IMG/VR virus record: IMGVR_UViG_644736359_000006
DNA length: 31,135 bases
Direction: 5' to 3' (one strand)
Source: a virus
Lineage: Duplodnaviria > Heunggongvirae > Uroviricota > Caudoviricetes
Position numbers and translations under genes: made by a program. Positions 11,673 to 26,555 of this stretch are shown piece after piece (position 1 is the first letter of the stretch; each line of letters starts with the position of its first letter). The notes beneath the pieces were generated by a model. The model did no database searches and was not told where the DNA came from. It saw only the letters and a program-made list of their open reading frames with translations.

Positions 11673-11879
11673 CTTCATTTTCACTTTCTTAAATCTAACG
11701 ACAGACGGCTAACATTTAAGTATTGTGAAATATTATCAAATGTAATCATCATTGATTTACAAAAGATACATTTTGCCCCGAAAGGATTCCTGTCAGAAAC
11801 ATCAAAAGATGATGTTCTATACTGAGAACCATGGCAACACGGGCATCTAAAGTGAATATGGTTTGTAATATTTTCTACC

Positions 11880-12092
11880 TCAAAGTGCCACAACATGAAC
11901 AGCCGCGGGGCCTTTAGGTCCGTTCTCAATACCAAATTCGACTTCCTGATTCTCAGTTAACGTTTTGAAATCGTTGCTCTGAATAGCTGAGAAATGGACA
12001 AACACATCTTTGCTACCATCTTTCGGCGTGATGAAACCAAAACCTTTTTCAGGGTTAAACCATTTCACTAAACCAGTCATTTTGTTAGACAT
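11880..12092 (-). CDS. cspI: CspA-family cold shock protein
   Basis: 70-aa product [38 protein letters not shown]... with RNP1/RNP2 motifs; long AT-rich 5' leader upstream. Confidence 0.85.
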
Positions 12093-12455
12093 CATTATTA
12101 CCTTTTGAAGAAGTTAGCCCTTGGGCAGAATGGTCCGAAAAAAAATATCAGAGAGAAAAACCAACAAGGAAATCTCAAGAGGTACAAATAATAAAATTAT
12201 AACAATGACTGCTTCAGATAATTTTGTAACAAACCAGAACACCATTAACGCATGATTAACCAACCATAGCAAGGATTACTTTTGTAAAGAAAAACACACG
12301 AATGAAACAATAGCTTTATTTATTAATAAAACGTGTCATTCTGTCTAATGACCTTTTATCTTACCCTTAAGATTTCAAGGATTTTGACTCATGGAAGAGT
12401 CCTTTTTATTTAAATTTCACATTCAGCGCTAAAAATAATCCGATTTAATATTAAT

Positions 12456-19374: not shown

Positions 19375-20025
19375 TTAGGCCAGCACACCAATTGCCAGCG
19401 CGCGATCGATAAATCGAAAAATCAGCTCCAGTTGGGAGCCATACTTCTCTTCAAATGCCACGGTATCCGTATGCAACTCGTCGTGATGCTTTCTGCACAA
19501 AGGCAAAACAAAGAGATCATGTGCTTTGGTTCCCATTCCGCCCTGCCCGTGACCAATCAGATGATGCGGATCGTCGGCTGGCATACCGCAGCAAGCACAC
19601 GGCTGTGTCTTAACCCAGCGTGTGTATTTCTCCTTAACCCACCGGTGACGTTTAGGCAGCTTCATGAAAGATTCCGGAGACTCTGGATCAACGGTGATGC
19701 TTACCACCGTCTTTTCCTGTGATGGGTTTTGTTGCTGGTGGGCGTGAGGCAACGGTGCAAGATTTTTTGTGCGCTGTTTCAATATGCTGGTGGCGGTCTG
19801 CTCTCCCGGTACGATGTCGCTTTCGCGGTACACCGAGCAGATTTTTTCCGCTGGTAATCCCAGCGAGCGACGTAATACCGCTTCCGGTAGCGCGTCCGCC
19901 AGCTGATTGCGGACCGCCCACCAGGATACCCGGGTATTGTGGAATACCGGCATGGATTCACGGCCCGGCTTAACGACCACCAGCCCAAGTTCCGGTACCA
20001 GAACAGGTCGAAGTAATACCCGCAC
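19375..20025 (-). CDS. DUF968-like nuclease-domain protein (YdfU-like)
   Basis: C-terminal ...[46 protein letters not shown]...; N-terminal half unrecognised; GC-rich with several overlapping shadow ORFs. Confidence 0.5.
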
Positions 20026-20026
20026 G

Positions 20027-20305
20027 TTACCTCCAGATGCGTTGCTGGAATGTACGGGACGGACGCGGTGGGCGTTCGGAGTAAGGCAATCTGACTGAGA
20101 TTATCCAGTGACGGTAGTCGAGACTAAGGGCTTTCTTAACCTCGTATCCGCGCCTGCGGTAACACTGAATTATCCATTCAGCCTGCTCTTCAGTGCATGG
20201 AGGGTGTTGGAACCATTCAGACTTGAATGCGTGAGAATACCGCTCGTGCGTGCAGACAAGAACGGGCGAATTATCAGAATTGTAATATTTTACGTTGCGT
20301 GCCAT
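20027..20305 (-). CDS. Hypothetical nin-region protein
   Basis: 92-aa ORF, stop 2 nt before the DUF968 start (operon coupling). Confidence 0.4.
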   Translation of the reverse strand: MARNVKYYNSDNSPVLVCTHERYSHAFKSEWFQHPPCTEEQAEWIIQCYRRRGYEVKKALSLDYRHWIISVRLPYSERPPRPSRTFQQRIWR

Positions 20306-20371
20306 CGGTTTTCTCCGGTGGCACGGTGTTACTCAGCGGGAGTTCAGCCCCGCGCAAGATTGTAGATGAGT

Positions 20372-20623
20372 TTATTCTTCTGCAAAAGCTGAAAAGCCTG
20401 CTTTTATTCCGATCTCTTTCAGTGCCTGTAATGAAGTGACAAACTCACCTTCGCGCAAGATAAATCCGTCTGTCACTCGACCATCCACAAAATTAATTAA
20501 CGCAGCCCCATTCTTTCGCAAACACATAATGCGGTAATGACTAACAAGATTTCCATTTTCAACGCACACAGCATAGAGGCCATCTTCACAAAAATTTTTA
20601 CGCAGTTCTTCGATGTTCATCAT
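20372..20623 (-). CDS. Hypothetical protein at the rem position
   Basis: 83-aa ORF; length and position relative to hok match rem of Qin, but sequence not verified. Confidence 0.4.
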   Translation of the reverse strand: MMNIEELRKNFCEDGLYAVCVENGNLVSHYRIMCLRKNGAALINFVDGRVTDGFILREGEFVTSLQALKEIGIKAGFSAFAEE

Positions 20624-20740
20624 CAGAATCCTTCCGGATAATTAGCTCTCCCCTTTAAGGGACCATCCCTCTTATCCCTGCGCGCTACTTAAGTATTTTT
20701 GATTCTATTCCGGCACCGTCCAGAACTTCAAACGCGTTGA

Positions 20741-20769
20741 AAATAAAAACAAAAACCCGCCGAAGCGGG
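20741..20769 (-). terminator. Rho-independent terminator downstream of hok
   Basis: Stem cccgc/gcggg with cgaa loop, followed on the minus strand by UUUUUGUUUUUAUUU. Confidence 0.6.
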
Positions 20770-20839
20770 TTAAGTGCGAGTGCGTTGAGGATGCCTGCCA
20801 CATCAGAGGTGGCGAGGGATTTCTCCCTCGCCGGGTCTC

Positions 20840-20995
20840 TTACTCCTCAGGTTCGTAAGCTGTGAAGACAGCGACCTCCGTCTGGCCGGTTCGGATTCGT
20901 ACCTCGCAGAGGTCTTTCCTCGTTACCAGTGCCGTCACTATGACGGTTAAACAGATGACGATCAGGGCGATTAACATCGCCTTTTGCTGCTTCAT
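20840..20995 (-). CDS. hokD: Hok-family type I toxin
   Basis: 51-aa product MKQQKAMLIALIVICLTVIVTALVTRKDLCEVRIRTGQTEVAVFTAYEPEE; in-frame upstream extension (mok-like) in the ORF track; AAGGAGAAG RBS. Confidence 0.85.
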   Translation of the reverse strand: MKQQKAMLIALIVICLTVIVTALVTRKDLCEVRIRTGQTEVAVFTAYEPEE

Positions 20996-21607
20996 AGCCT
21001 GCTTCTCCTTGCCTTTCGGCACGTAAGAGGCTAACCTACATGTGTCTAGCATGAAATTGGCCTCAGATTAATGTTAAGCGTCTTGCAGGACGCGTAATGT
21101 TAACTGGGGCTTTTCTCTATCTGCCGTTGGTGTTCATGCCCGAGGCAGATAGCCTCAAGCACCCGCAGCCATTCTACTTAACTACCGTTACCTCTCCAAT
21201 ATGAAATCAATCAGAAAGGTGATCCATAAGAACAATAACAAGACAATAAATTGCCATTACAGCCACAATAGCCAGCGTGCATTTGAGAACCAGCACATAA
21301 ATCTCCTGCTCTTGACGTATACAGGCACTGATAAATATGTGTCTTCGTGCTCGTTACTTCAATACGTAAGCGTCAGTTGCGCGTAATCAAATCAGACAAC
21401 CGACTTTAAACCAGGGACAAACAGCAGGTAAAATAATCAAACGTTATTTTAAGCCATATCATGGCTGCAAGATTTCCTCTAATTTCAACAAGATGAGCAG
21501 GTCATTGCTTGCACTGATGACCTGCTCATTAATCATGATTATTTGAAAATTAAGGTAGGCGTACTATATATAGAAACACTGCTACGCTCCGTTGGCATAA
21601 TATAAAA

Positions 21608-22294
21608 TCATTCCTGGCCTTCTTTACCGTAGTGGAGTTGACCAATTTTGATTAGAGGGCGTCCCTGAGATTTGCGGTGTAGATTGGTATCGCGCAGTGA
21701 ATACACGCAGCCACAATATTCCTGCTGATAGAATTGTTCGCGCTTGCTGATTTCAATCATGCGGGAAGAGCCGCCCTGCTTTCGCCAGTTATAATCCCAG
21801 TACACCATGCCCGGATAATACGCGACGGCTCGCCGTCCACAGTCGTTAACCTGCTGCATATTTTTCCAGCGTGAAATGCCCAGTGAGCTACTGATCACAC
21901 TGAAACCATTTTCAGCGGCATACAGCGCAGTCCGCTCAAAACGCATGTCAAAACACATGGTACAACGGATCCCTCGTTCAGGCTCCCATTCCATTCCTTT
22001 GGCTCGCTCAAACCAGTTGTCTGTGTCGTAATCAGCATCAATAAATGGCACGCCGTGTTGTTTAGCAAAGCGAATATTCTCATCCTTACGAATTAAATAC
22101 TCTTTCTGAGGATGAATGTTCGGGTTGTAGAAAAAGATGGTGTAGTCGATTCCCGAGGCCTGAAGCGCCTCCATCACTTCACCGGAACATGGAGCACAGC
22201 AAGAGTGCAGTAATAGTTTTTTTGCCCCGTTTGGGAGCTCCAATTTGGGGCGTTTGAAATCAGCAACAGTCATAAATGTGTTTATGAGGTTCAT
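21608..22294 (-). CDS. QueH-like (DUF208) epoxyqueuosine reductase homologue
   Basis: Motifs [12 protein letters not shown] near the N-terminus and [10 protein letters not shown] near the C-terminus; start codon uncertain (ATG 22294 or 22273, or GTG 22387), none with a clear RBS. Confidence 0.5.
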
Positions 22295-26327: not shown

Positions 26328-26380
26328 TTTTCTGGTGACGTTTGGCGGTATCAGTTTTACTCCGTGACTGCTCTGCCGCC
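26328..26380 (+). ncRNA. dicF: DicF small RNA
   Basis: Sequence tttctggtgacgtttggcggtatcagttttactccgtgactgctctgccgcc followed by gttttt matches the 53-nt DicF with its 3' terminator hairpin. Confidence 0.85.
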
Positions 26381-26555
26381 GTTTTTAAAGTGAATTTTGT
26401 GATGCGGTGAATGCGGCTAAGCGCACGCGGAACAGTTAAAACCAAAAACAGTGTTATGGGTGGATTCTCTGTATCCGGCGTTAATTGTTAACTGGTTAAC
26501 GTCACCTGGAGGCACCAGGCACTGCATCACAAAATTCATTGTTGAGGACGCGATA

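Follow-up and report, generated by a model that had tools for sequence, protein, structure and literature searches.

The hok/sok family among type I toxin-antitoxin systems, its hokD/hokW clade, the truncation of hokD in E. coli K-12 and the enrichment of hok genes in prophages are already known from published work. In the plasmid-borne hok/sok (parB) locus of R1, which has a proven role in post-segregational killing, the mok reading frame differs from that of hok. Sok targets the mok start region there, as we predict below for the locus under study. The R1 elements and their refolding logic (tac/fbi, ucb, dcb and a 3' hairpin) are also the same as those predicted here, and the final stem-loop of the truncated R1 hok mRNA shields it against 3'-5' exoRNases (PMC9841398). 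For the hokW-sokW locus of Sakai prophage 5 (Sp5, phage VT2-Sakai; Takada et al. 2021, PMC8621323), experiments have established a type I toxin-antitoxin system, which is active in prophage induction and contributes to lysis and phage release. In this system, sokW neutralises HokW, which shares 44% identity with R1 Hok (PMC8621323).

The hokC/mokC/sokC (gef) locus of E. coli K-12 has the same architecture as the locus described here, and IS186 lies just past its hok stop codon. In the passages of PMC7232551 and PMC12214031 that cite Pedersen & Gerdes 1999, the inactivation of the K-12 hok loci is put down to point mutation, genetic rearrangement or IS elements, and the same two papers list hokC as inactivated by an insertion element. 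For the native chromosomal hokA, hokB and hokC, a statement in a preprint (bioRxiv 10.1101/2025.08.07.668861), citing Pedersen & Gerdes, mentions the lack of post-segregational killing.

Here, we describe a hok locus in a 31,135-nt stretch of viral DNA, called the window in the following. An initial annotation had presented it as a stand-alone hok gene without relBE, which implies a departure from the norm. Based on homology, RNA folding and the comparison of many genomes, we consider it highly likely (probability about 0.9) that positions 20745-21198 contain a complete type I toxin-antitoxin module of the hok/sok family, belonging to the hokD/hokW clade and located in a Qin-like lambdoid prophage. 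The features of the locus and its surroundings are listed in Table 1.

Table 1. Positions of predicted and matched features in the window
Feature	Position	Strand	Details
Candidate hok mRNA promoter	21171-21198	-	TGGAGA, 16-nt spacer, TAGAAT; consensus scan
Predicted full-length hok mRNA	20745-21164	-	~420 nt; from +1 (21164) to terminator T-run
tac element	21144-21164	-	mRNA nt 1-21; GGGUGCUUGAGGCUAUCUGCC
5' inverted repeat	21117-21125 / 21144-21152		CTATCTGCC / GGCAGATAG
ucb / anti-Shine-Dalgarno region	21106-21125	-	3' arm of 5' hairpin; GGCAGAUAGAGAAAAGCCCC
Predicted Sok-like antisense RNA	21044-21121	+	~71-78 nt
mok Shine-Dalgarno	21061-21064	-	GAGG, 9 nt 5' of ATG
mok-like ORF	20840-21052	-	70 aa, in frame with hok, common stop
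Predicted Sok promoter	21009-21037	+	TTGCCT (21009-21014), 17-nt spacer, TAACCT (21032-21037)
dcb-like box	21027-21031	-	GCCUC; pairs in silico with mok Shine-Dalgarno in 3'-truncated fold
hok Shine-Dalgarno	21005-21010	-	AAGGAG
hok toxin ORF	20840-20995	-	51 aa; HokD, RefSeq WP_000813254.1
UACG motif in hok	20854-20857	-	Tyr47 codon UAC + following G; mRNA nt 308-311
3' hairpin	20811-20832	-	perfect 9 bp, 20811-20819 / 20824-20832; 8 nt past hok stop
fbi (fold-back inhibition) element	20778-20802	-	complementary to tac
Intrinsic terminator	20745-20771	-	7-bp GC-rich stem, 4-nt loop, T-run
Promoter-like site between hok terminator and rem	20702-20731	-	TTGAAG, 18-nt spacer, TAGAAT
rem	20372-20623
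Small hydrophobic ORF	21207-21296	-	29 aa, GTG start; MLVLKCTLAIVAVMAIYCLVIVLMDHLSD
queH (epoxyqueuosine reductase)	21608-22273	-	Pfam 219.5 bits; directly 5' of hok locus
DicF small RNA	26330-26381	+	72.5 bits
cspA thermoregulator leader match	11834-12250	-	109.8 bits

The toxin gene and its in-frame mok

The 51-codon frame encodes the peptide MKQQKAMLIALIVICLTVIVTALVTRKDLCEVRIRTGQTEVAVFTAYEPEE, and alignment showed that its DNA is the same as that of K-12 hokD over the full length of the coding sequence, which bears out the earlier assignment to HokD. The peptide scored 81.6 bits with Pfam HOK_GEF (PF01848; cut-off 22, E = 3e-23) and 48.5 bits with the NCBIfam Hok subfamily, which is under the strict cut-off of 73 of that model. 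In the identical DNA of E. coli B and BL21, RefSeq annotates this coding sequence as hokD, and a HokD peptide of exactly this sequence has been found toxic upon overexpression. The coding sequence of Sp5 hokW differs from it by 8 nt. As a side observation, the Tyr47 codon and the following G form a UACG motif. In K-12 hokD mRNA, low-level (6%) A-to-I editing that turns Tyr47 into Cys has been reported at the UACG site (PMC12214031), and since the coding sequences are identical, the motif in the window corresponds to this reported site.

The in-frame, mok-like leader that the initial annotation had proposed is indeed present as a 70-codon frame ending at the hok stop codon. Its product is 74% identical to K-12 MokC, and mokC and hokC are annotated in K-12 with the same in-frame layout and a common stop codon. 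The frame also matched PHROG 251, 'MokW-like host killing' (E = 8e-33), and the Sp5 locus likewise contains an in-frame mok, annotated under this same name. The mok ATG is unchanged in 7 homologues.

The hok mRNA and its predicted folding

A consensus scan detected a promoter-like site whose -10 element ends 7 nt before the predicted transcription start. This -10 element (TAGAAT, TACAAT or TAGGAT) is kept in 7 homologues, in which the sequence farther upstream diverges, and the site probably drives the hok mRNA. The 5' and 3' ends of this mRNA can be set by homology, which suggests a full-length transcript that runs from 21164 into the terminator. In a scan of the whole window, the Rfam model RF01794 ('sok'), with a gathering score of 59, matched over its full length at 21164..20990 on the minus strand (115.3 bits, E = 8e-26), and the start of the model coincides exactly with position 21164. 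This score is comparable to that of K-12 hokC (118), K-12 hokB (110) and Sp5 hokW (113.5). Despite its name, the model represents the sense strand of the hok leader, as the match in K-12 hokC falls on the strand opposite to the annotated sokC. Therefore, the match supports the leader itself and lends an antisense gene no more than indirect support, and automated annotation from RF01794 would put 'sok' on the wrong strand. By sequence, the match marks a canonical hok leader with predicted tac, Sok-target and mok initiation hairpins.

The minimum free energy (MFE) of the 420-nt RNA was -170.3 kcal/mol (z = -6.7 relative to 100 shuffled sequences, none of which reached the observed energy). The upstream 9-bp inverted repeat reported earlier at 21109-21153 was recovered with corrected arms (Table 1), and sits within a 20-nt imperfect repeat (21106-21125 / 21144-21163); in the Rfam consensus structure the region 21106-21125 is likewise paired with nt 1-21 of the mRNA. 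The tac element, which is 95-100% identical across 6 homologues, is predicted to alternate between two partners. As long as the RNA is full-length it would pair with fbi, and after 3' processing, or within the local 5' hairpin, with ucb. The inverted repeat formed by tac and fbi comprises 15 nt with 80% complementarity, 344 nt apart. When the full-length RNA was folded in silico, nt 1-12 paired with nt 375-387, and the mok Shine-Dalgarno sequence paired with an AAGCCCC box at ~21106-21114 (ucb). RNAduplex found the same fbi partner in 5 homologues. Thus, the comparison with the tac and fbi elements of hok/sok suggested in the initial annotation did reveal conserved mRNA fold elements. In the fold of nt 1-364 the pairing switched, with nt 1-8 now bound to nt 53-59 (tac/ucb), and nt 101-105 to nt 134-138, so that the mok Shine-Dalgarno pairs with the dcb-like box. 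The folds of truncated RNAs vary with the 3' end, and those of nt 1-357 and 1-360 differ from the Rfam-like open fold of nt 1-364. Because of this dependence on the cut site, we regard the switch as being in line with the R1 model, but not as demonstrated.

Just behind the hok stop codon, the perfect 9-bp stem-loop noted before was found at the position given for it. We roughly estimate the chance of encountering a perfect 9-bp hairpin with a loop of 3-8 nt in 650 nt at ~0.015, and in homologues the stem is retained although its sequence changes. By analogy with R1, this hairpin is probably the 3' end of the processed, translatable mRNA and a block to exonucleases. A terminator had been recognized as well, and it is there, with slightly different borders than the 20741-20769 originally given: the stem covers 20754-20771 and the T-run extends down to ~20745. 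K-12 carries an identical terminator, whereas no AACCCGCTTCGGCGGGTTTTT terminator follows fbi in the Sp5 locus.

A predicted Sok antisense RNA

The possibility of a Sok-like antisense RNA had been raised in the initial annotation, and the sequence makes its presence probable. The predicted RNA begins with a 5' tail of ~9 single-stranded nt, which complements the mok AUG and the bases just after it; a long hairpin follows, and then a U-rich CUUUUCUCU tail. Both ends agree with those of K-12 sokC: G21044 aligns with the 5' terminus annotated for sokC, and the 3' end with its GGGGCTTTTCTCTAT end. The predicted shape matches that of sokC, sokB and sokE, although the sokC hairpin is ~18-20 nt shorter. 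The fold of the 78-nt RNA has an energy of -30.5 kcal/mol (z = -6.1), which none of the shuffled sequences reached, and the region is 91% identical to that of Sp5 sokW.

A generic sigma-70 scan of the plus strand did not call the Sok promoter, which can be explained by its -10 element, TAACCT, matching the consensus at 3 of 6 positions. The promoter was located by alignment with K-12 sokC, Sp5 sokW and published mutagenesis primers, so that the promoter search proposed in the initial annotation failed with the generic scan and succeeded with the alignment. All 29 nt of the promoter are the same in Sp5 hokW-sokW. Primers YO-421/YO-422 replace exactly TAACCTA in the 'pro-less' sokW construct, which results in the loss of antitoxin activity (PMC8621323). 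The window also has identical copies of the primer sites that bound the functional pACYC184-sokW clone. The Sok -35 element overlaps the hok Shine-Dalgarno sequence of the opposite strand. At the sequence level, the locus therefore appears to possess a cis-encoded Sok with its own promoter that overlaps the mok start. A literature search for 'sokD' returned nothing relevant.

Small ORFs and hairpins can arise by chance in intergenic regions. Apart from the small size of the ORF, nothing speaks for such an origin here, and the Rfam and Pfam E values (8e-26 and 3e-23), the fold z-scores of -6.7 and -6.1 with no shuffled sequence reaching the observed energies, and the conservation in thousands of genomes leave it with essentially no probability.

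Taking R1 hok/sok and Sp5 hokW-sokW as direct models, we propose that the weak hok promoter would yield a stable mRNA of ~420 nt, in which the 5' tac is paired with the 3' fbi, and the upstream ucb box holds the mok Shine-Dalgarno sequence, so that the full-length RNA would be neither translated nor bound by Sok. Slow 3' trimming to the hairpin behind the stop codon would remove fbi, after which tac would pair with ucb and free the mok ribosome-binding site. Translation of mok, which is in frame with hok in this locus, would then permit Hok synthesis. The unstable ~71-78-nt Sok from the opposite strand would cover the mok start codon with its single-stranded 5' tail, block mok translation and trigger cleavage of the duplex; consequently, Hok would be made only once Sok synthesis stops. 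The results given here establish the sequence elements with their homology, and the predicted pairings with their conservation, and it is from the analogies that we infer transcription and processing of the locus, toxicity in its own context, and a biological role.

The K-12 hokD locus is a truncated form

In the Qin prophage of K-12, homology spans 19936-21009 of the window, from DUF968/rem through hokD, at 95.5% identity. The K-12 locus has the same downstream rem gene, and its 3' hairpin and fbi each differ by 1 nt from those in the window. The homology ends at 21009, 14 nt 5' of the hok ATG, and from there K-12 continues with relE, located 71 nt 5' of the hok ATG, whereas the window continues with the hok leader. 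This breakpoint falls within the Sok -35 element, and no Rfam sok match was obtained in the K-12 hokD region. On the basis of this end of homology and the missing Rfam match, we regard K-12 hokD as the truncated form, without hok promoter, tac, ucb, mok start, Sok gene and Sok promoter. K-12 hokD, also named relF, stands third in the relBEF operon, and any expression of it takes place within the relBE transcript.

The absence of relB and relE, as described initially, holds for the complete window: using K-12 queries, neither RelE and RelB (tblastn, E<=10) nor the relBE-ydfV-flxA DNA (blastn) gave a match in the 31 kb, so these genes are not displaced nearby either. The locus therefore does not belong to the relBEF type, as the hok leader fills the place of relB-relE. 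It could be argued that the locus derives from a K-12-like relB-relE-hokD operon that lost relBE and left a stand-alone hokD. The familiarity of K-12 as a reference, with relBE directly 5' of an identical hokD, is all that recommends this scenario. In the ~155 nt past the breakpoint, the hok leader is complete and has homologues at hokC, hokB, hokE, hokW and plasmid hok loci. A deletion could not have created a leader so typical of the family, together with a mok start and a sok gene; it is in K-12 that the leader is missing, with homology ending at 21009 and no Rfam sok match.

The distribution in E. coli points the same way. The leader-containing form, counted when a copy covered >=80% of a query that joined promoter and leader to the initial 66 nt of hok, was present in 4034 of 5426 complete genomes, and the relE-hokD junction in 1165 of 5426, making the leader form ~3.5 times commoner. 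Moreover, the literature ascribes the state of the K-12 loci to rearrangement, in the passages that cite Pedersen & Gerdes 1999 (PMC7232551, PMC12214031). We consider the loss of relBE very improbable, and conclude that the stand-alone layout is the canonical, complete hok/sok arrangement and that the K-12 relB-relE-hokD order is the rearranged, leader-less one. Thus, the initial view of the stand-alone gene as the exception has to be reversed.

Conservation and covariation

One of the closest known systems, Sp5 hokW-sokW, belongs to the same clade and is 94% identical over the mRNA region, with a tac element identical to that in the window. To examine structural conservation, 7 homologues were compared, drawn from phages, one P1-like element and one plasmid. 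With a structure that was derived from the window itself, standard pairs occurred in 91.9% of the cells, versus 35-41% when the partners were slid. Fifteen pairs were changed on both sides, compared to 6.8 ± 1.9 after shuffling (0 of 500 shuffles reached this number) and 3-7 in the slid controls. Compensatory changes were found in leader helices 2 and 5, and in helix 2, the 5' hairpin, they affected 2 of the 9 pairs. The 12 core tac-fbi pairs showed no covariation within the hokD/hokW clade, and are conserved instead. In the distant loci of pHCM1 and K-12 hokC, RNAduplex revealed a 5'-3' complementarity of different sequence. In plasmid pTB-nb1, the fbi region has been swapped for an unrelated sequence adjoining an IS421 transposase gene, which recalls the IS186 element just downstream of K-12 hokC and hokE.

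The most variable part of the locus is the 19-nt segment 21044-21062, comprising the Sok 5' tail and mok start, with 52-68% identity versus 81-95% for the whole mRNA region. The neighbouring Sok promoter and tac show 80-100% identity in the homologues compared. In Sp5 sokW, 6 of these 19 nt differ (68% identity), so that the two antisense RNAs do not share their recognition sequence. Genomes contain a median of 2 hok/sok copies, with a maximum of 9. The variability of the tail fits a diversified antisense specificity among co-resident copies, and the segment may be under diversifying selection that keeps up to 9 co-resident copies orthogonal.

Prophage context and possible activity

The hok locus is situated in a nin/Q region, with genes for the Q antiterminator, DUF968 and rem downstream, and QueH, DUF977 and YdaT/Cro/CI-type genes upstream. 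The presence of DicF, together with homology to the K-12 dicB/ydfD region, confirmed that this is a Qin-like prophage. The match to the cspA thermoregulator leader belongs to a cspB/cspI-type cold-shock gene of the prophage, and K-12 Qin has such a gene too. Both this locus and Sp5 hokW-sokW reside in lambdoid prophages, the latter near the genome end and the former between QueH and rem/Q.

Whether the locus is active in vivo is uncertain, because chromosomal hokA, hokB and hokC have been reported to lack post-segregational killing. It is conceivable, though in our estimation rather unlikely, that the module is a sequence-intact but physiologically silent relic in a decaying cryptic prophage, producing too little Hok to matter. 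The reported silence of other chromosomal hok loci would agree with this, as would the degraded surroundings, since the DUF968 gene and a methyltransferase gene are RefSeq pseudogenes in identical DNA. Against it, all known regulatory elements are there, neither an IS element nor a stop codon breaks any of them, HokD of exactly this sequence is toxic when overexpressed, and the compensatory changes and the leader form in 4034 of 5426 genomes suggest that selection maintains the RNA structure. In addition, the 94%-identical hokW-sokW is active and aids lysis and phage release (PMC8621323).

Speculatively, hokD/sok could be active in the E. coli B lineage, either as a lysis aid or prophage stabiliser like hokW-sokW, or as an abortive-infection module, with a Sok tail that is perhaps diversifying; we hold this to be possible, with odds below even. 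The region in the window recurs with 100% identity in E. coli B, BL21 and other strains, in which RefSeq labels only hokD, leaving out mok as well as the sok antitoxin RNA. With only this coding sequence labelled, a reader who has K-12 in mind would see a toxin without a partner. The finding is mainly a gain in annotation, and it corrects a bias towards the K-12 reference. BL21 and other E. coli B derivatives apparently possess an intact hokD/sok that was lost in K-12, which is a small but real difference between the two main laboratory lineages. The finding of hokD/sok resolves no open question.

Other observations around the locus

In BL21(DE3), queH is missing from the position next to hok, and DUF977 follows directly after hokD. 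The full spacer at 21190-21610 is common to only 67 of 5426 genomes. On the other side of the locus, the promoter-like sequence between the hok terminator and rem is possibly the promoter of rem.

Within the upstream spacer lies an unannotated hydrophobic ORF of 29 codons, which ends in the hok promoter region. It is preceded by a Shine-Dalgarno sequence, AGGAG, 6 nt upstream, and by a possible promoter, TTGAAG-17-CATATT, at ~21362-21334. A PHROGs search and tblastn against phages gave no PHROG match and no function for this ORF. It occurs in four phages, one of which annotates it as hypothetical. In 3 diverged relatives (phage Tritos and two E. coli chromosomes), the ORF and its Shine-Dalgarno sequence are kept and most substitutions are conservative, while the sequence farther upstream diverges. 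The product resembles a small membrane peptide, and the ORF accompanies the hok locus in a subset of prophages.
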